64,000 bases of DNA from the NCBI GenBank assembly GCA_045654705.1, contig JAZONY010000001.1:2156-66155 (forward strand). The letters run 5' to 3'. The translations under genes and the position numbers were made by a program. Shown here one piece after another: positions 3,928 through 60,481 of the stretch. How positions within the stretch are numbered: position 1 is the stretch's first letter; every line of letters starts with the position of its first letter. The notes under the pieces were generated by a model. That model searched no databases. It saw only the letters and a program-made list of their open reading frames with translations, and was not told the origin of the DNA. The DNA is from Victivallaceae bacterium (GTDB lineage: Bacteria; Verrucomicrobiota; Lentisphaeria; Victivallales; Victivallaceae).

Positions 3928-4968
3928 ATGAGCAGCAACACATTCGGAACGCTTTTCAAAGTCACCACATTCGGGGAATCCCACGGCCCCGCTATCGGCG
4001 CAGTCGTTGACGGTATGCCCGCCGGGATCGCCATAGATCAGGGATTCATCCAGCAGGAGCTTGACCGGCGTCGCCCCGGAGGCGGTGCGGCAGGTTCCAC
4101 CCACCGCAAAGAAAGCGATACCGTGGAGATCCTTTCCGGTGTTTTTGAAGGCAAAAGCACCGGAACCCCCATTGGTTTGCTCATCCGCAACAGCGACCAG
4201 CACAGCAAGGATTATTCTGAACTCAAAGATCTCTTCCGGCCCGGTCACGCCGACTGGGGATTCCATGCCAAGTACGGGTTCCGGGATTACCGGGGCGGCG
4301 GCAGATCCTCAGGCAGAGAGACCGCCTGTCGTGTGGCGGCAGGTGCCCTGGCAAAACTTTTTCTTGCATCTGCCACCCCTGTAAAAATCACCGCCTATAC
4401 CCTTGAAGTTGGAGGCGTTGCCGTTGAGAAGATCGACCTTGACGAGATCAACACCAATCCCCTCCGCGCCCCCGACAACGCCGCCGCACTCAAGATGGCG
4501 GAACGCATCGAAACATGCCGCCGTGAACTCGACAGCTGCGGCGGTATCGTGGAGTGCCGCATCACCGGAGTCCCCGCCGGTTGGGGCGAAGGGGTTTTCG
4601 ACAAATTGGATGCCCTTCTTGCCCATGCCATATTTTCCATCGGTGCCGTCAAAGGCTTCACCGTCGGCAGCGGTTTTGAAGCGGCAAAAGTGACAGGCTC
4701 CGTCAACAACTCCGCCCCCGGTGCCGCAGGCGGCATCAGAGGAGGCATTTCAGACGGTGAAACCATCGTTTTTCAGGCAGCGGTGAAACCGACGCCCTCC
4801 ATCGGTCAGGAGCAGTCCATGCCCGGTACCGACGGCGCCATGCACCGTTTTGCCATCAAAGGCAGGCACGATGTCTGCATCGTCCCCCGGGTCGTCCCCG
4901 TGGTCGAGGCGATGGCGGCGATCGTTCTTGCGGATTGTGCGCTCCGCCAGAGATGCGCGGTTATCTGA
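3928..4968 (+). CDS. aroC: Chorismate synthase
   Basis: Motifs TTFGESHGPAIG, RRRPGG, GGGRSSGRETA and GGISDGE are present. Confidence 0.9.
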   Translation: MSSNTFGTLFKVTTFGESHGPAIGAVVDGMPAGIAIDQGFIQQELDRRRPGGGAAGSTHRKESDTVEILSGVFEGKSTGTPIGLLIRNSDQHSKDYSELKDLFRPGHADWGFHAKYGFRDYRGGGRSSGRETACRVAAGALAKLFLASATPVKITAYTLEVGGVAVEKIDLDEINTNPLRAPDNAAALKMAERIETCRRELDSCGGIVECRITGVPAGWGEGVFDKLDALLAHAIFSIGAVKGFTVGSGFEAAKVTGSVNNSAPGAAGGIRGGISDGETIVFQAAVKPTPSIGQEQSMPGTDGAMHRFAIKGRHDVCIVPRVVPVVEAMAAIVLADCALRQRCAVI

Positions 4969-4999
4969 AACCACTACACTCAGAGAGAGAGAAAGGTGA

Positions 5000-6802
5000 A
5001 TGACTATGAAACTTGCTAAACTTACCGACTCCGGATTCCATGTGGGAGCAAAACGTTATAAACTGAACCTTTACGACGGCATCGAAGCTGCCAGACTTTT
5101 TTTGCGGAACTCCACTCAGGAGTATTGGTTCTCCCCCAGCGTTGCCGTGAACTGTGTCAACCGCTGTGACGAACTCGCCGCCTTTGAAAAGTGGCAGAAA
5201 GAGGAACGCAAAGACGCCGTCATTTTCACCCGTTCCGAAAAATCCGTCCTCTGGAAACAGAAAAAGACCACCATCATCTGCAAAGAGGACTCCATTGAGG
5301 TTTTCGGCACCGTCGAGGGCAGCGGCACTGTGGAGGATGTGCGCTTTTTCCGCAGCTGTTTCAACAAGGTGGAATACGGCTTTGCCGGGGAATTCGACGA
5401 AGTCATCAACACCGCCCCCAACTTCCACAGCAAGATCTTCTATCACCCCGTGGAAAGTTTTTCCACCTCTTTCGGCGAAGATCTGACTCCCGCCGTGGGC
5501 GGTCAGGCTCTGGCAAGCTGCTGCAGCTGCATCGGTCTGCGTGACCGGACCGAAAGAAAATATATTTCCGCAGGTGCAGCCGCTCTCCCCGGGGAATACA
5601 CCTGGGACAGTTTCCGCTGGAACCCCATGCCCCTCATGCCCCCCACAAGCTACATCGGCGACCAGATGAAAGCCGGTGGATTCGCTTTGGAATATGCAGG
5701 CAAAAAGAGTATTGCAGATCACTGGGAAACCCCCCGGCTGATTCTGGGATTCTGCGACAGCTGTAACGATATTCTGCCCACATATTTAAATCTCTGCTAT
5801 GAAAGAAACTATCTGCCCAAGCCCCACCGCCGCCGCATCCAGAACTGGTGGCGCAGCCCCATCTACTGCACCTGGCATGATCAGGTCGCCGCTGCCATGA
5901 TGGATAAAAACAACTACCTGGGTCACAACGGCCCTCACGCCAGAGAGTTCTGCACCGAAGAGCTGGTGGAGGAGTGGCTGGCAGAACTCATCAACCATGA
6001 CTGCAAACCGGGCATCCTTATTCTGGATGACAAGTGGCAGCTCAATCTGAACGATGCCGATCCCGATACCGACAAGTTCCCCGACATGCGCCGGTGGATC
6101 GAAAAATGCCATCAGAGAGGCATCAAGGTCTTTCTCTGGACCGCCGCATGGAACAATGACAATATCCCCCTTGACGAAGCCATCACCCGTGACGGCAAGG
6201 TGATTTGCGGCGATATCACCAATCCTAAATATGAAGCACGCTTCCGTGAAATGATCCGCCGCTACTTCTCTGATGCCGAAGACGGTCTCAACGCCGACGG
6301 CGTGAAAATGGATGGACTCCTCGGACTGCCCATCGGTGCGGGATTGAAAAACCATGAGGACCTCTGGGGGCTGGAGCTGCAGAAACGTTATCTGGATATC
6401 CTTTATGAAACCGCCCACCAGACTAAAAAAGATGTCTGTGTCAGCACCTATGTCGCCAATCCCTATCTGGCGGACACCAGCGACATGGTCCGTCTCGCCG
6501 ACATGTATCACGGCCGTCTCACCACCCGCCGTGCCATGAAGGAACGGGCTGAAGTTTACAGCTACACCATGCCCCATACCCTCATCGACACCGACGGACA
6601 GTTCAATTTCAGTTCCATGGAACATGTTTCCGAACTGATGGCTGACCAGATGAAACTGGGTATCCCCACCGTCTACAACGGAAAACTTGTGCGACAGAAC
6701 CGTTTCTTCATGCCCGTCAACTACCGGGAAATGACTGAGGAAGATTACGCCATCATCTCACGGGCGTTCAAGATCCAGCGCAAAAACAACGGTCTCAAGT
6801 GA
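5000..6802 (+). CDS. Hypothetical glycoside-hydrolase-like protein (GH36 / raffinose-synthase-like TIM barrel)
   Basis: The sequence has WWRSPIYCTW, ILILDDKWQ and ADGVKMDG, which resemble the clan GH-D motifs (GWCSW, DDGWQ, GVKVD). There is no signal peptide. Confidence 0.45.
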   Translation: MTMKLAKLTDSGFHVGAKRYKLNLYDGIEAARLFLRNSTQEYWFSPSVAVNCVNRCDELAAFEKWQKEERKDAVIFTRSEKSVLWKQKKTTIICKEDSIEVFGTVEGSGTVEDVRFFRSCFNKVEYGFAGEFDEVINTAPNFHSKIFYHPVESFSTSFGEDLTPAVGGQALASCCSCIGLRDRTERKYISAGAAALPGEYTWDSFRWNPMPLMPPTSYIGDQMKAGGFALEYAGKKSIADHWETPRLILGFCDSCNDILPTYLNLCYERNYLPKPHRRRIQNWWRSPIYCTWHDQVAAAMMDKNNYLGHNGPHAREFCTEELVEEWLAELINHDCKPGILILDDKWQLNLNDADPDTDKFPDMRRWIEKCHQRGIKVFLWTAAWNNDNIPLDEAITRDGKVICGDITNPKYEARFREMIRRYFSDAEDGLNADGVKMDGLLGLPIGAGLKNHEDLWGLELQKRYLDILYETAHQTKKDVCVSTYVANPYLADTSDMVRLADMYHGRLTTRRAMKERAEVYSYTMPHTLIDTDGQFNFSSMEHVSELMADQMKLGIPTVYNGKLVRQNRFFMPVNYREMTEEDYAIISRAFKIQRKNNGLK

Positions 6803-7956
6803 AAAAGAAAAGAAAAATCTGGATCTTCGCCGGTGAAAGTTCAGGCGATATGTACGGCGCACAGCTGGGTGACGAGCTGCGCCGTATCGCCGCTGCCCGG
6901 AATGAGGAGGTGGAGCTTTCTGGTATGGGCGGCAAAGCCATGATCGCTTCCGGGATCCCGGTCAAGGTGGACTCCACCGAACTGGGAGTCATGGGCGTCG
7001 TTGAAGTGGCAAAGCTGCTCTTCAAATTCATCGCCATCTACATCCAACTGGTGAAAGCGGCAAAAAAAGAACGCCCTGAAACGGTGGTCCTCATCGACTA
7101 CCCCGGCTTCAATCTGCTTTACGCCCTTGCCATGTATTTTCTCAAGATCAAGGTGGTGTGGTACATCGCCCCCCACTTGTGGATCTGGGGCAAATGGCGG
7201 CTGCCGGTCCTTGCGAAAATCTGTACCAAAGTGCTGGTCATATTCCCCTTTGAGGTGGAAGTTTTCAGCAAAACGGCACTGAAAGCCACCTTTACCGGAC
7301 ACCCCCTCATCGACATCATGGCAGAGAAAAAAGATCCCTCCATCCCCCGGGATCCCGATCTGGTGCTGCTGCTCCCCGGGAGCCGTGCCGGTGAAATCAG
7401 CCGTATGCTGCCGGTGATGCTGGAGTCCCTCAACGAGCTGAAAGAACGGAACCCCCAACTGAAGTTCCGTCTTTCCGCCCCCCGTGAAAAAATCGCCGTC
7501 CAGTGCCGTTCTCTCATCGAAGCGTTCCGCAGAAAAAAAACGCTCCCTGAGATCGAAATTTCAGTGGGCGACACCAACTACTGCCAGCAGCATGCGGGAA
7601 CCGGTATCGCCGCCTGCGGAACTGTCACCGTCGAAAGTGCCATCATGGGACTGCCCCTGCTTGTGGGCTACCGTCTGGGTTTCATCAACTATCTGGCGAT
7701 GCTGCCCACGGTGCGGCCTTTCAGGGGATTTATCACCATGACCAACATCATCGACAACAGTCCGGTGTGTCCTGAATTCATCCAGTACGACTTCAAAAAG
7801 TCCAACATCGTCCCTGCCCTTGAATCCATTCTTCCGGGCGGCGTCCGCCGTGACTCCACCCTCGAAGGGATGAAACGGGTAACGCAGATGCTCAGCGAAG
7901 GCAACAACGGCCGCAGCGCCGTCGCCCGAGCCGCCGAAGAGATCTATTCGGCGTAA
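6799..7956 (+). CDS. lpxB: Lipid-A-disaccharide synthase
   Basis: The N-terminal IFAGESSGDMYGAQL motif and the 385-aa length fit LpxB. The GTG start overlaps the upstream stop codon. Confidence 0.85.
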   Translation: MKKKRKIWIFAGESSGDMYGAQLGDELRRIAAARNEEVELSGMGGKAMIASGIPVKVDSTELGVMGVVEVAKLLFKFIAIYIQLVKAAKKERPETVVLIDYPGFNLLYALAMYFLKIKVVWYIAPHLWIWGKWRLPVLAKICTKVLVIFPFEVEVFSKTALKATFTGHPLIDIMAEKKDPSIPRDPDLVLLLPGSRAGEISRMLPVMLESLNELKERNPQLKFRLSAPREKIAVQCRSLIEAFRRKKTLPEIEISVGDTNYCQQHAGTGIAACGTVTVESAIMGLPLLVGYRLGFINYLAMLPTVRPFRGFITMTNIIDNSPVCPEFIQYDFKKSNIVPALESILPGGVRRDSTLEGMKRVTQMLSEGNNGRSAVARAAEEIYSA

Positions 7957-56731: not shown

Positions 56732-56813
56732 AACACAAAGCGGAACTTTGGCATCTCAAGGGAATTCCGGAACGCAGCCATCCGGAAGAGAAGCTCAAAG
56801 TTCCCTTTGTGTT
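56732..56813 (+). ncRNA. Candidate structured RNA: 82-nt extended imperfect hairpin
   Basis: AACACAAAGCGGAACTTTG pairs with CAAAGTTCCCTTTGTGTT. GCATCTC pairs with GAGAAGC. TTCCGGA pairs with TCCGGAA around a 9-nt loop. There is a 7-nt 5' bulge, AAGGGAA. It lies downstream of P1. Confidence 0.3.
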
Positions 56814-56905
56814 TAAGGGCAAAATCCCCCTTTGTTATTCAAGTCTAAATAAAACGCTCCCCTGGCATGTTTTGAAAAAGTTCGAAAAAAATTTTCTTTT
56901 TCCCC

Positions 56906-56934
56906 TTGACGGAAAGTCAAACAGGTGATATATT
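56906..56934 (+). promoter_or_regulatory. Promoter P2 of the ilv leader / ilvBN-ilvA operon
   Basis: TTGACG-N17-TATATT, about 38 nt upstream of the leader-1 ATG. Confidence 0.65.
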
Positions 56935-56971
56935 ACGCAGAAACAAACTTGTGAAAGAGGTTATTACAGTT

Positions 56972-57055
56972 ATGGATTTGTTTTTCAAAAACAGCATTAT
57001 TATTATTGCCATCGCCGCGATTATTATTTGCGACGGTGTCTTTCGCTGTTGTTGA
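56972..57055 (+). CDS. ilv leader peptide 1 (MDLFFKNSIIIIAIAAIIICDGVFRCC)
   Basis: It has an AAAGAGG RBS 11 nt upstream. Eight of its 27 codons are Ile. It is followed by terminator 57082-57117, and an alternative pairing exists. Confidence 0.75.
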   Translation: MDLFFKNSIIIIAIAAIIICDGVFRCC

Positions 57056-57081
57056 GAATCAAAGAAAAAGAATTTTTGAGA

Positions 57082-57117
57082 ACTCTCTGCTGCGAAAGAC
57101 GGCAGAGAGTTTTTTTT
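57082..57117 (+). terminator. Attenuator terminator 1 (ilv leader)
   Basis: An 11-bp stem ACTCTCTGCTG / CGGCAGAGAGT with loop CGAAAGA, followed by T8. The alternative pairing is GTCTTTCGC (57038-57046) with GCGAAAGAC (57092-57100). Confidence 0.8.
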
Positions 57118-57122
57118 GTGCC

Positions 57123-57281
57123 ATGAAAAAAGAAACAAATAAAACTTTTGCTTTTTTCAACCCTGCATCCGGCAATGCGGGGAGCTTTGCTGTGTCCGGA
57201 GTCTGCCGGAGCGCGTTCATTATTATTATCATTTCCATTATCATTTCCATTATTATTATTACGCCTTCCGGCACAGCTTGA
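57123..57281 (+). CDS. ilv leader peptide 2 (52 aa, ...SAFIIIIISIIISIIIITPSGTA)
   Basis: There are 12 Ile codons within a 14-codon window near the 3' end. The stop codon lies 25 nt upstream of terminator 57306-57345. The start codon is uncertain because there is no clear SD. Confidence 0.65.
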   Translation: MKKETNKTFAFFNPASGNAGSFAVSGVCRSAFIIIIISIIISIIIITPSGTA

Positions 57282-57305
57282 ACGTCAAAGATATCAATAC
57301 AAGTT

Positions 57306-57345
57306 CTGCCGGAAGGAAAAAATGAAACCTTCCGGCAGTTTTTTT
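57306..57345 (+). terminator. Attenuator terminator 2 (ilv leader)
   Basis: A perfect 11-bp stem CTGCCGGAAGG / CCTTCCGGCAG followed by T7. The alternative pairing is CCTTCCGGCA (57264-57273) with TGCCGGAAGG (57307-57316). Confidence 0.85.
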
Positions 57346-57379: not shown

Positions 57380-59038
57380 ATGATCAGAACAGGAGCCAAC
57401 ATCGTCATCGAATCCCTCTGCCGCAACCATGTCGAAACCGTTTTCGGTTATCCGGGAGGGGCTGTACTGCCCATCTATGATGAACTTTACAAAAATCAGC
57501 ACCGTATCGACCATATCCTCTGCGCCCACGAGCAGAACGCCGTCCACGCCGCAGACGGTCATGCCCGTATTTCCCGCCGTCCCGGGGTGGTGATCGCCAC
57601 CAGCGGTCCCGGCGCCTCCAATCTTGTAACAGGGATCGCCACAGCCTATCTTGACAGTGTGCCTCTGGTGATCATCACGGGCAATGTCAACGCCTCGCTG
57701 CTCGGCAGGGACAGTTTTCAGGAACTGGATATCACAGGTGTCACCCGTCCCATTGTCAAACACAACTTTGCGGTCACATCGGTCAGGGAACTTGCAGGTG
57801 TCATGGATGCGGCGTTCCGTATCGCTCTTGAGGGCAGAAGAGGTCCGGTCCTCATCGACATTCCCAAAAGTATCCAGTGCGACAGCTGTTCTGAAAAAAA
57901 TTACTGTTCCCCCCTTTATTTCACCCATCCCCTGCGGCAGCCTGATCTTACCGCCGCCGTATCGGCGCTCAAAGATGCCGCCCGTCCCCTGATCTACGCC
58001 GGGGGCGGAGTTGTCGCCGCCTGTGCGTTTCATGAATTGGAGTCTCTCGCTGAGCGTCTGGATGCCCCTGTGGTATTCAGCATGATGGGACTTTCAGCAA
58101 TGAGTTGCGATCATCCGAAAAATGCTGGGATGTGCGGAATGCACGGTACTGCCGCTTCGGCGGAGCTTCTCGACAAATGCGACCTGCTTCTCGCCCTCGG
58201 CGTGCGCTTTTCGGACCGTGCCGCAGGAGACCCGGAAAAATTCAGAAAAAACAAAAGGATCATCCACATCGACATCGACCACAGTGAACTCAATAAAAAT
58301 GTCACCGTCGATATGGGCATCAGAGGCGAACTGAAAGAAACACTGACAAGAGTTCTTGAGCTTCTTCCCCGGCAGTCACGCCCCCTGTGGCACGATTTCC
58401 TTGAAAAAGTCAAGGGGACACCACGCCCCTGTGAAGAAAAATCCCTCGTCCCGCAGAATCTCTTTGCGACAGTTGCAGAATATTGCGGGCCCGATTGCGC
58501 CGTTGCAACCGATGTGGGACAACACCAGATGTGGACCATGCACCATTATCCGTTCCGCAGATCAGGCGCGCTTCTGACTTCGGGGGGATTGGGGACCATG
58601 GGGTACGGTCTGGGTGCCGCCATAGGGGCAAGTATCGCTCAAGGGGGCAAACGGGTGGTCCTTTTTACCGGTGACGGCAGTTTCGGCATGAGTTTGCAGG
58701 AGCTTGCCACAGCAGTCACATACCGCCTGCCCCTTCTGATCGTCATCTGCAACAACGGCGTTCTGGGCATGGTCCGGCAGTGGCAGACCATGTTTTTCCG
58801 GAAACGCTACTCCTGCTCCACGTTGAACCGGCAGACCGATTTTCCCGCTCTTGCCCGGGCGTTTGGTGCGGAGGGGCAGAAGATCACCACCCTTGAGGAA
58901 CTGAAAGCGGCACTTTCCCATCTGTCCGCCGACCGTCCTCTTGTGCTGGACTGCCGTCTCGATCAGGATGAATTTGCGCTTCCCATGATCCCTCCGGGGG
59001 GAAGCGTTGAAGATATGATAACCCAAAAGGAGTTTTGA
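57380..59038 (+). CDS. ilvB: Acetolactate synthase (AHAS) large subunit
   Basis: It is a TPP enzyme with N-terminal GANIVIESLCRNHVETVFGYPGGAVLPIYD and the TPP motif GDGSFGM...NN. The protein is 552 aa. Confidence 0.9.
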   Translation: MIRTGANIVIESLCRNHVETVFGYPGGAVLPIYDELYKNQHRIDHILCAHEQNAVHAADGHARISRRPGVVIATSGPGASNLVTGIATAYLDSVPLVIITGNVNASLLGRDSFQELDITGVTRPIVKHNFAVTSVRELAGVMDAAFRIALEGRRGPVLIDIPKSIQCDSCSEKNYCSPLYFTHPLRQPDLTAAVSALKDAARPLIYAGGGVVAACAFHELESLAERLDAPVVFSMMGLSAMSCDHPKNAGMCGMHGTAASAELLDKCDLLLALGVRFSDRAAGDPEKFRKNKRIIHIDIDHSELNKNVTVDMGIRGELKETLTRVLELLPRQSRPLWHDFLEKVKGTPRPCEEKSLVPQNLFATVAEYCGPDCAVATDVGQHQMWTMHHYPFRRSGALLTSGGLGTMGYGLGAAIGASIAQGGKRVVLFTGDGSFGMSLQELATAVTYRLPLLIVICNNGVLGMVRQWQTMFFRKRYSCSTLNRQTDFPALARAFGAEGQKITTLEELKAALSHLSADRPLVLDCRLDQDEFALPMIPPGGSVEDMITQKEF

Positions 59039-59041
59039 AAA

Positions 59042-59275
59042 TTGGAAACATTTACCGTTGAACTCATCACCGTCAACAACTGCGGGGTGCTGCATCACAT
59101 TGCAGGAATTTTTGCTAAATGCCAACTGAATATCGAAACGCTTGACCTTAAACCCCTTCCGGAAGGTCTTTCGTGTATGCGTATCACCTTGCGGGGAGAT
59201 AGGACTCTGCGCACTCATCTGCTCAGACTTCTTTCAAAACTTTACGATGTAAAAAGTGCTGCACAAATAAAATAA
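59042..59275 (+). CDS. ilvN: Acetolactate synthase small (regulatory) subunit, ACT-only short form
   Basis: 77-aa protein with a TTG start. The ACT-like segment is ELITVNNCGVLHHIAGIFAKCQLNIETL. It lies immediately after ilvB. Confidence 0.6.
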   Translation: METFTVELITVNNCGVLHHIAGIFAKCQLNIETLDLKPLPEGLSCMRITLRGDRTLRTHLLRLLSKLYDVKSAAQIK

Positions 59276-59287
59276 GGAGTATTGACC

Positions 59288-60481
59288 ATGCTGACACTGG
59301 ACAAAGTATATCATGCCGCTTGTGTGCTTTCACAAGTGGCGAGAAAAACCGACATGATCGACAGCTGCGGACTGCGGCGTGATTGTGAACTGAAATTCAA
59401 AGCGGAAAATCTTCAAGTCACAGGCTCTTTCAAACTTCGCGGAGCCTATTTCAAGATCTCCACCCTAGCAGGAGACTCCCCCAACCGCGAGATCATCGCC
59501 TGTTCCGCCGGAAACCACTCCCAGGGTGTCGCCTATGCCGCACGGGCATTGAAGCGCAAAGCGGTGATTTTCATGCCTGCCACCGCCCCCATTTCAAAGG
59601 TCGAAGCCACCCGCAAACTGGGAGCGCAGGTCCATCTCGTTGACGGCGTTTACGATGATGCCGCCAACGCCGCAGAAAATTATTGCCGCACGACAGGGGG
59701 CATCTTTGTCCACCCCTTTGACGACGAAGATGTTATCGCAGGTCAGGGCAGTGTCGCACTTGAGATACTGGAACAATATCCTGATGTGGATACGGTTTTT
59801 GTGCCGGTCGGGGGCGGCGGCCTGCTGGCGGGAACAGCTTTCACAATAAAACAGCTGAAGCCTGACTGCAAAGTTTACGGCGTTCAGGCTGAGGGTGCCC
59901 CCGGCATGTACAAAGCCTTTGCGGAAAAATCCCCTGTCACTCTGCCTCATGTATCCACCTTTGCCGACGGCATCGCCGTCAAACGCCCCGGAGAACTCAC
60001 ACGCCGGCTCTGCTGTCAATATGCCGACGGCATCGTCACCGTGACCGATGATGAGATCGCCTCCGCCATCCTGACATTGATGGAAAAGCAGAAACTTGTC
60101 GCCGAAGGCGCCGGTGCCGCCGGAGTCGGTGCCGTGCTGGCAGGCAAACTCCCCCTTGCGGGGAAAAAGGTGTGCGCCCTCATTTCAGGGGGGAACATCG
60201 ACGTCAACATTCTTTCAAGGGTCATCAACCGGGGACTCCTTTCAAGCGGCAGACGGGCGGAGCTGAAAATCGCCATGCTGGATAAACCGGGGCAGCTCCA
60301 TGAAGTTTCGGGCATCATCGCCCGATGCGGTGCCAATGTGGTCCAGGTGCGCCACGATCCCGGAGGCGAACATGCCGACATCATCGGATGTTTCCTCCAT
60401 ATCAAGATGGAAACCCGCTCCGCAGAACAGCTTGAAGAAATCAGAACTGCCCTGACGGATGCGGGTTACAAACTGGTGTGA
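59288..60481 (+). CDS. ilvA: Threonine ammonia-lyase (threonine dehydratase)
   Basis: FKLRGA contains the PLP lysine. SAGNHSQG and GGGGL are present, and the C-terminus has a single ACT-like domain. ATG lies 8 nt after AAGGAG. Confidence 0.85.
   Translation: MLTLDKVYHAACVLSQVARKTDMIDSCGLRRDCELKFKAENLQVTGSFKLRGAYFKISTLAGDSPNREIIACSAGNHSQGVAYAARALKRKAVIFMPATAPISKVEATRKLGAQVHLVDGVYDDAANAAENYCRTTGGIFVHPFDDEDVIAGQGSVALEILEQYPDVDTVFVPVGGGGLLAGTAFTIKQLKPDCKVYGVQAEGAPGMYKAFAEKSPVTLPHVSTFADGIAVKRPGELTRRLCCQYADGIVTVTDDEIASAILTLMEKQKLVAEGAGAAGVGAVLAGKLPLAGKKVCALISGGNIDVNILSRVINRGLLSSGRRAELKIAMLDKPGQLHEVSGIIARCGANVVQVRHDPGGEHADIIGCFLHIKMETRSAEQLEEIRTALTDAGYKLV

Follow-up and report, generated by a model that had tools for sequence, protein, structure and literature searches.

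Two isoleucine-codon leader-peptide attenuators predicted in series ahead of ilvB-ilvN-ilvA in a Victivallaceae bacterium

Results

Organization of the ilv locus

The 64,000-nucleotide (nt) stretch of a Victivallaceae bacterium genome analysed here (GenBank assembly GCA_045654705.1, contig JAZONY010000001.1, positions 2,156–66,155 of the forward strand; hereafter the window) contains an ilvB-ilvN-ilvA operon whose leader carries a pair of short open reading frames (ORFs) rich in isoleucine (Ile) codons, each followed by a hairpin with a U-tract (Table 1). A reading of the DNA letters alone (the original prediction) had taken these for two leader-peptide attenuators in tandem; the coordinates, sequences and Ile counts that it gave for the two ORFs all check out. 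The operon genes encode a biosynthetic acetohydroxyacid synthase (AHAS) and, for the step that commits to Ile, a threonine ammonia-lyase. Against NCBIfam equivalogs, ilvB reaches 627 bits with TIGR00118 (large subunit of biosynthetic acetolactate synthase; cutoff 538) and ilvA 432 bits with TIGR01127 (threonine ammonia-lyase with one C-terminal regulatory domain; cutoff 379). The 77-residue ilvN-like ORF matches the ACT domain found in AHAS small subunits (Pfam ACT_AHAS_ss) at 42 bits, above the cutoff of 27. No ilvC or ilvD is present in the 64-kb window. Most relatives have ilvB-ilvN-ilvC-ilvD-ilvA (ilvC and ilvD at, for example, 4925–7542 of locus L010), and the window shares the short order ilvB-ilvN-ilvA with L003, L004 and L013.

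A single sigma-70-like promoter (56906–56934) serves the leader. Its TTGACG and TATATT hexamers are separated by a 17-nt spacer with TG next to the −10, giving an extended −10 of the form TGnTATATT, and a consensus scan finds 10 of 12 consensus positions matched plus the TG; an A/T-rich UP-like tract (AAAAATTTTnTTTTT) lies immediately 5′ of the −35. The end of the −10 is 37 nt from the leader-1 ATG, and the same scan of the window lists no plus-strand promoter-like site between 56934 and 57232. The gene upstream of the leader region is a divergent HAD hydrolase, so terminator 1 serves no other gene.

The two leaders stand out from the rest of the window. A pattern of four consecutive Ile codons has four matches in 64 kb against 0.15 expected, all four within the two leaders, and none of 100 shuffles reaches four. 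Both leader halves fold more stably than shuffles (minimum free energy (MFE) z = −3.3 for unit 1 and −3.9 for unit 2), and an unbiased repeat search independently recovered both terminators, both antiterminators and the 1:2 helix of unit 2, described below.

Table 1. Coordinates of the promoter, leader elements and operon in the window
Feature	Position	Strand	Details
Promoter	56874–56934	+	UP-like A/T-rich tract 56874–56901; −35 TTGACG 56906–56911; −10 TATATT 56929–56934
Leader ORF 1	56972–57055	+	27 codons; ATG 56972; TGA 57053–57055
Hairpin within leader 1	57010–57038	+	57010–57020 with 57028–57038; Ile codons in loop; RNAfold and alifold
Antiterminator 1, upstream strand	57038–57046	+	GUCUUUCGC; 7–15 nt 5′ of leader-1 stop
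Terminator 1	57080–57117	+	Stem 57080–57092 / 57100–57112; 7-nt loop 57093–57099; U8 57110–57117
Leader ORF 2	57123–57281	+	52 codons from ATG 57123; TGA 57279–57281
Attenuator 2, segment 1	57202–57217	+	UCUGCCGGAGCGCGU; directly 5′ of Ile run; copy of terminator-2 5′ arm
Attenuator 2, segment 2	57261–57280	+	ACGCCUUCCGGCACAGCUUG; ends at stop codon; antiterminator-2 upstream strand
Terminator 2	57300–57345	+	Perfect 11-bp stem 57306–57316 / 57328–57338; 11-nt loop 57317–57327; U7 57339–57345
Regulated operon (predicted)	57380–60481	+	ilvB 57380–59038; short ilvN-like ACT subunit 59042–59275; ilvA 59282–60481

Unit 1 pairs the end of its leader with a terminator loop

Pairing was scored on two alignments of related loci, A1 for unit 1 (17 sequences) and A2 for unit 2 (20 sequences), against a slid control in which the partner strand was shifted. 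Leader 1 encodes MDLFFKNSIIIIAIAAIIICDGVFRCC, and its eight Ile codons (seven ATT, one ATC) lie at 56996–57007, 57011–57013 and 57020–57028; an AAGAGG resembling a Shine–Dalgarno (SD) sequence (56955–56960) stands 11 nt 5′ of the ATG. Towards the end of the ORF, GTCTTTCGC (57038–57046) is exactly complementary to GCGAAAGAC (57092–57100), with a duplex energy of −17.3 kcal/mol. This helix, antiterminator 1, joins the last leader-1 codons to the loop of terminator 1 and the top of its 3′ arm; the closing pair and loop of the terminator (57092–57100) are the downstream strand of the antiterminator, and the two pairings are mutually exclusive. The original prediction had both upstream segments pair with the 5′ part of their terminators, which holds for unit 2; in unit 1 the target is the loop and closing pair. 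By eye, no canonical antiterminator against the 5′ arm of terminator 1 was found, and the loop pairing is the sole strong alternative. A further candidate, in which GGCUGCGG of leader 1 would pair in relatives with CCGCAG of the terminator 3′ arm, was rejected on reading the alignment, being lost where the terminator has CCGGUG.

Terminator 1 folds at −22.3 kcal/mol in RNAfold. Its pairs are kept in 95.9% of alignment cells (at most 57% when slid), with four compensatory pairs, UG/CA to AC/GU. For antiterminator 1 the same alignment columns are paired in 97.8% of cells, against at most 51% when slid: the window has GUCUUUCGC:GCGAAAGAC where relatives have CGGCUGGUU(A/G):(U/C)A(A/G)UCAGCCG, with two-sided changes at five pairs. 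The hairpin inside leader 1 (duplex −12 kcal/mol) is paired in 93% of cells, against at most 57% when slid; it leaves the antiterminator-1 strand unsequestered and is a possible pause or ‘1:2’ hairpin.

Unit 2 has a probable four-segment layout

The ATG of leader 2 lies only 5 nt 3′ of the terminator-1 U-tract. As the original prediction noted, this start has no visible SD; an in-frame GTG (57192) following GGGGAG (57179–57184) is an alternative, and from either start ribosomes would traverse the Ile run, 12 Ile among 14 codons (57219–57260). The GGGG of 57179–57184 is itself in the 3′ arm of a hairpin (57162–57183) whose loop has a copy of CCGGCA.

In the repeat search, 57202–57210 is an exact copy of the terminator-2 5′ arm (a direct repeat with 57305–57313) and 57264–57273 an exact copy of the 3′ arm. 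Segments 1 and 2 can form a helix (57204–57216 with 57261–57273, −21.0 kcal/mol) that is present in the MFE structure of the full leader; in relatives, the segment-1 equivalent can also pair locally with an upstream copy. Segment 2 has a second partner: CCTTCCGGCA (57264–57273) is exactly complementary to TGCCGGAAGG (57307–57316), and the antiterminator 2 formed by segment 2 with 57300–57318 reaches −23.5 kcal/mol. Its upstream strand (57264–57276) lies 3–15 nt 5′ of the leader-2 stop, and its downstream strand (57300–57316) doubles as part of terminator 2, so that either pairing excludes the other. Terminator 2 (−20.5 kcal/mol in RNAfold) ends 35 nt 5′ of the ilvB ATG and is paired in 91.2% of cells, with compensatory change at five pairs. 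A terminator thus follows each leader, as had been claimed, and both are kept with compensatory changes.

Two details of alignment A2 concern the shared strands. L014 has U to C at column 256, and both partners of that column, antiterminator column 210 and terminator column 286, have changed from A to G. The antiterminator-2 and terminator-2 helices are extended in parallel, on the loop side in the window (CCUU:AAGG) and on the base side in relatives (GGC:GCC). The codons for TPPGMA carry the antiterminator strand, and here the paired synonymous sites (columns 206 and 209) are fixed while the unpaired synonymous column 203 takes all four bases, which argues for selection on the RNA.

The tandem arrangement is conserved in Lentisphaeria

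Among species-representative genomes, the closest ilvB genes are in Lentisphaeria/Victivallaceae metagenome-assembled genomes from animal guts (64–66% identity). A metagenome scan for closer relatives added only two more Lentisphaeria loci, again at 64–66% identity, which leaves the lineage of the window as the main source of compensatory change in antiterminator 1. An exact-match look-up of the window’s ilvB protein returned no record. Promoter, leader 1, terminator 1, leader 2, terminator 2 and ilvB stand in the same order in 16 Lentisphaeria/Victivallaceae genomes, so the serial arrangement that had been proposed for the window is real and conserved; in four more relatives (L004, L006, L013 and L082) the second unit stands alone. 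Aligning related ilvB upstream regions, the comparison that the original prediction had named as a check, finds both antiterminator pairings kept and co-varying in the 16 tandem relatives. The promoter is similarly constant: 15 of the 17 tandem loci, the window included, have TTGAnn-16/17-TAnnnT with the extended −10 TG, 29–37 nt 5′ of the leader-1 ATG, and most have a similar A/T-rich tract 5′ of it.

The evolutionary signature of the leaders fits translated ORFs. Leader-1 orthologues in the 16 relatives have 27–29 codons and the form M..FFNNI.SIIIIAA.IIGCGTAG.C*; leader-2 orthologues, in 20 relatives, have 42–60 codons, begin with a conserved ATGAATACG after an A-rich stretch and end in ..IIISIIISVIIITPPG(M/T)(A/V)*. 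The leader-1 ATG column is invariant, every leader ORF is intact with start and stop kept, all 112 gap runs inside leader ORF columns are multiples of three, and variability is highest at third codon positions. Of 344 Ile codons, all but 5 are ATT or ATC; the two alternate, and ATA is nearly absent. Relatives have 6–9 Ile codons in unit 1 and 7–15 in unit 2. Valine codons number 0–5 in leader 1 and 2–11 in leader 2, and leucine codons 0–1 in leader 1 and 0–2 in leader 2, except in L006 and L007 (5–6). The description of both leaders as rich only in Ile thus applies to the window and has to be widened for the relatives, whose leader 2 adds valine.

In a neighbour-joining tree of IlvB (one protein, this method only), the window branches off outside every other tandem locus, and the loci with a single unit sit nested within that group; the tandem arrangement accordingly appears to be ancestral and maintained, unit 1 having been lost later in the single-unit loci. 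An origin of the two units by duplication is unsupported by inspection: peptide tails, terminator sequences and antiterminator geometry all differ.

Several loci show local variation. In L004 (2480–2520) and L013 (2720–2775), leader 2 starts about 30 nt past the stop of a same-strand upstream gene, whose product ends ..PKTVNGKIRR.ALRNKDNN and is acyl-CoA synthetase-like by eye. No promoter of its own was detected for leader 2 in these two loci, which suggests transcription by read-through from that gene. About 250–300 extra nt lie between terminator 2 and ilvB in L014 (2730–3000) and L004 (2740–3000), and in L002 (466–570) an insertion of some 100 nt separates leader 2 from terminator 1. In a distant member of the Victivallales (L019, positions 1–135; 58% IlvB identity, cut by the contig end), a leader ends ..RISIVIPVLIPAITDTLRRRSGEI* with mixed Ile, valine and leucine codons, and a CCGGCA segment faces a GCCCTGCCG...CGGCAGGGC terminator; from its sequence this would be an attenuator of the unit-2 kind whose codon mix is more conventional.

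About 100 nt 5′ of the window’s ilv promoter, between the HAD-hydrolase gene and the leader, there is an imperfect inverted repeat (56732–56813; 26-nt arms, 73% complementary, perfect core GGAACTTTG/CAAAGTTCC), adjoined by a direct repeat CCCTTTGT.. at 56803 and 56828. The inverted repeat might bind a regulator or form a structured element.

Ribosome position selects between the alternative pairings in constrained folds

Constrained folds of the nascent RNA used a 28-nt ribosome mask. Before the terminator 3′ arm emerges, the antiterminator is the MFE structure in both units (9 of 11 pairs in unit 1, 12 of 13 in unit 2). It persists with no ribosome and with the ribosome masked on early Ile codons, and a mask on the leader stop codon takes it to 0 pairs in both units. 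The geometry of ribosome-mediated attenuation that the original prediction had drawn is borne out in these folds, a footprint at the stop codon abolishing the antiterminators and a stall at the Ile codons leaving them.

At the level of sequence, both units carry the hallmarks of ribosome-mediated attenuation, and we think it highly probable that they are two such transcription attenuators in series, sensing the charging of Ile-tRNA. One promoter and a leader of about 440 nt would then place two complete attenuators ahead of ilvB-ilvN-ilvA. With ample charged Ile-tRNA, a ribosome translating either leader would reach the stop codon, its footprint would hide the segment just 5′ of the stop, the terminator would form and polymerase would stop at the U-tract. 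With scarce Ile-tRNA, the ribosome would halt on the early Ile codons, and the freed segment would pair with the emerging terminator region and allow read-through. In stage 1, the antiterminator would engage terminator 1 at its loop and top; this stage would probably also be read through when its leader is untranslated, because the internal hairpin leaves the antiterminator strand exposed. Stage 2 would have the classical four-segment layout (1:2, 2:3, 3:4), segments 1 and 2 being copies of the terminator 5′ and 3′ arms. Segment 1 abuts the first Ile codon, and a stalled ribosome would mask segment 1 and free segment 2. Because both terminators must be passed, read-through of the two stages should multiply, which would lower basal expression and steepen the response to Ile limitation.

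Several observations weigh against this interpretation or narrow it. In full-length RNA at equilibrium both terminators beat their antiterminators; the decision must therefore be kinetic, since the terminator wins once its 3′ arm is present, and the model needs co-transcriptional kinetics and ribosome–polymerase coupling, which it presupposes for this phylum. The trp attenuation decision is likewise kinetic. In unit 1, the antiterminator helix of the window covers only the terminator loop and one pair, an atypical geometry, most of its compensatory changes stem from the window’s lineage, and covariation of the internal hairpin is not above shuffles in the 17 sequences. In unit 2, the antiterminator core CCGGCA:UGCCGG is nearly invariant and so offers little covariation, and the ATG at 57123 has no SD and sits 5 nt past a U-tract. 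The operon of most relatives adds ilvC and ilvD, which serve valine and leucine, yet the leaders are nearly without leucine codons. Finally, a simple terminator scan listed neither hairpin: terminator 2 was missed because its 11-nt loop exceeds the 8 nt allowed, and terminator 1 likely because its stem can extend into its own U-tract. Terminators were judged by RNAfold and covariation instead.

Alternative explanations of the leader

Unit 2 might work alone, unit 1 being a decaying duplicate that lies upstream by chance, or else a small gene in its own right whose product is a short RNA or a hydrophobic micro-protein. Four relatives (L004, L006, L013 and L082) do manage with unit 2 alone, distant L019 shows only a unit-2-like element, and an antiterminator that pairs with a loop is atypical. 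However, the sole promoter lies 5′ of leader 1, with no plus-strand promoter-like site from 56934 to 57232, and in the window just 5 nt separate the terminator-1 U-tract from leader 2. Unit 1 moreover keeps its Ile run, terminator and antiterminator co-varying in exact register across 17 sequences, and is retained in 16 relatives, with the window branching outside them all. We regard an idle unit 1 as very unlikely.

A second explanation holds that small membrane peptides (a single hydrophobic helix) are the functional products, or that the terminated RNAs act in trans, attenuation being secondary. Leader 2 is long for a leader peptide (42–60 residues) and resembles a transmembrane helix, and leader peptides and attenuator RNAs that act in trans are a known phenomenon (peTrpL and rnTrpL). 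The conserved peptide motifs, though, coincide with RNA pairing segments (PALFVSG with a CCGGCAC..GUGUCCGG hairpin, TPPGMA with the antiterminator strand), and the fixity of paired synonymous sites beside a free unpaired column 203 points to RNA-level rather than protein-level selection; this account is less probable still. Least probable of all, in our judgement, is that the leaders are untranslated and a trans factor (an RNA-binding protein, a T-box-like tRNA interaction or a small ligand) switches the hairpins, the Ile runs being AU-rich spacers. That leader 2 of the window lacks an SD would suit it, and (ATT)n tracts might conceivably be simple repeats; but start, stop and frame are kept at every locus with only 3n indels, the runs are interrupted by sense codons (TCC, GCC, AGC, GTA) and alternate ATT with ATC, and the alignments show no evident conserved structure of an aptamer-like or specifier kind. 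Rfam searches also speak against such a factor. For the leader region, with E up to 10, no family reaches threshold, and the best sub-threshold hits are leader-peptide families (Thr_leader RF00506, 25.6 bits against 55; Phe_leader RF01859, 20.2 against 55). Rfam 15 run on the whole window at gathering thresholds passes only one tRNA, and none of 19 related loci, ilvB neighbours from Clostridia and Treponema among them, has a hit at the gathering threshold. A switch from T-box to leader peptide, which we considered in connection with these 19 loci, finds no support there.

Discussion

The leader described here resembles the enterobacterial attenuators (ilvL of ilvGMEDA, ivbL of ilvBN, thrL, trpL and hisL) in having an ORF of regulatory codons, a terminator before the first structural gene and an exclusive antiterminator whose 5′ strand falls within the ribosome footprint of the leader stop, and AHAS and ilvA are regulated there too; unit 2 would share their full 1:2 / 2:3 / 3:4 layout. 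The helices of trpL have energies in a range similar to those of the window. It differs in having two complete units in series rather than one, in the pairing of the unit-1 antiterminator with a terminator loop, and in its codons, which are nearly all Ile in the window and a mix of Ile and valine in relatives, whereas ilvL mixes Ile, valine and leucine and ivbL uses valine and leucine. There is also no sequence or covariance-model similarity to the enterobacterial leaders (Thr_leader, 25.6 bits against a gathering threshold of 55). Two successive leader ORFs 5′ of one regulated gene are also found in erm(A)/erm(T)-type leaders, where antibiotic-stalled ribosomes bring about translational attenuation; these do not sense amino acids and do not work via intrinsic terminators.

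Tandem leaders provide the closer parallels. In the window, two sensor-plus-platform units follow one promoter, each with its own ORF, antiterminator and terminator, and in this they are like double T-boxes and tandem riboswitches, in which one leader likewise bears, one after the other, two complete units of sensor plus terminator. Each tandem metE riboswitch has its own intrinsic terminator (PMC3641672), and double T-boxes may act cooperatively, sharpening the response to uncharged tRNA (PMC9413887), a suggestion with which multiplied read-through would agree. In those systems the RNA senses tRNA or metabolite directly; here the sensor would be the ribosome translating the leader ORF. The Salmonella mgtCBR leader has two short translated ORFs (mgtM and mgtP), each controlling stem-loops and transcription and acting independently; its units sense ATP and proline-charged tRNA, it has no intrinsic terminators, its operon does not make the amino acid that is sensed, and its authors termed it ‘a singular example’ (PMC3641672). 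By comparison, both units described here have Ile runs and canonical terminators.

Outside Proteobacteria, attenuation ahead of ilvB-led operons has been described for a Corynebacterium ilvBNC upstream ORF (PMC10272879, PMC11857589) and a leucine-rich attenuator peptide of S. aureus (PMC5794164); by their titles and abstracts, each is a single upstream ORF or attenuator. A survey from 2010 put the demonstrated cases of leader peptides in Proteobacteria and Actinobacteria only, itself adding Firmicute cases (PMC2965389). In the literature searchable to us (subscription papers outside its scope), we found no report of same-amino-acid leader-peptide attenuators in series, nor of any attenuator in Lentisphaerae/Lentisphaerota. 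As read from the sequence, the mechanism would be classical, and the new part would be its doubled, same-signal arrangement, conserved in 16 relatives.

A bolder proposal, possible but in our view doubtful, is that this is the first natural pair of same-amino-acid attenuators in series, predating the split of the window’s lineage from the other tandem loci, and that its two differently built stages make a multiplicative, low-leak, ultrasensitive switch. Stage 1 would work by a loop-invading antiterminator with no sequestering 1:2 helix, and stage 2 by the four-segment layout with super-attenuation; the two together would tell ‘no translation’ from ‘Ile starvation’. The whole branched-chain operon (ilvBNCDA in most relatives) would then be under essentially Ile-only (plus valine) control.

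With strong comparative support, these leaders would extend leader-peptide attenuation to Lentisphaerota, a phylum of the PVC group, and the 20 aligned sequences are a ready seed for a new RNA family model. They would represent a conserved layout in which two leader-peptide attenuators for one signal follow each other, with parallels in double T-boxes, tandem riboswitches and the mixed-signal mgtCBR leader. Should the stages multiply, this would be a compact natural device that keeps basal expression low and responds steeply to a single charged tRNA, with a bearing on branched-chain amino-acid regulation in gut anaerobes and on RNA-based synthetic circuits.

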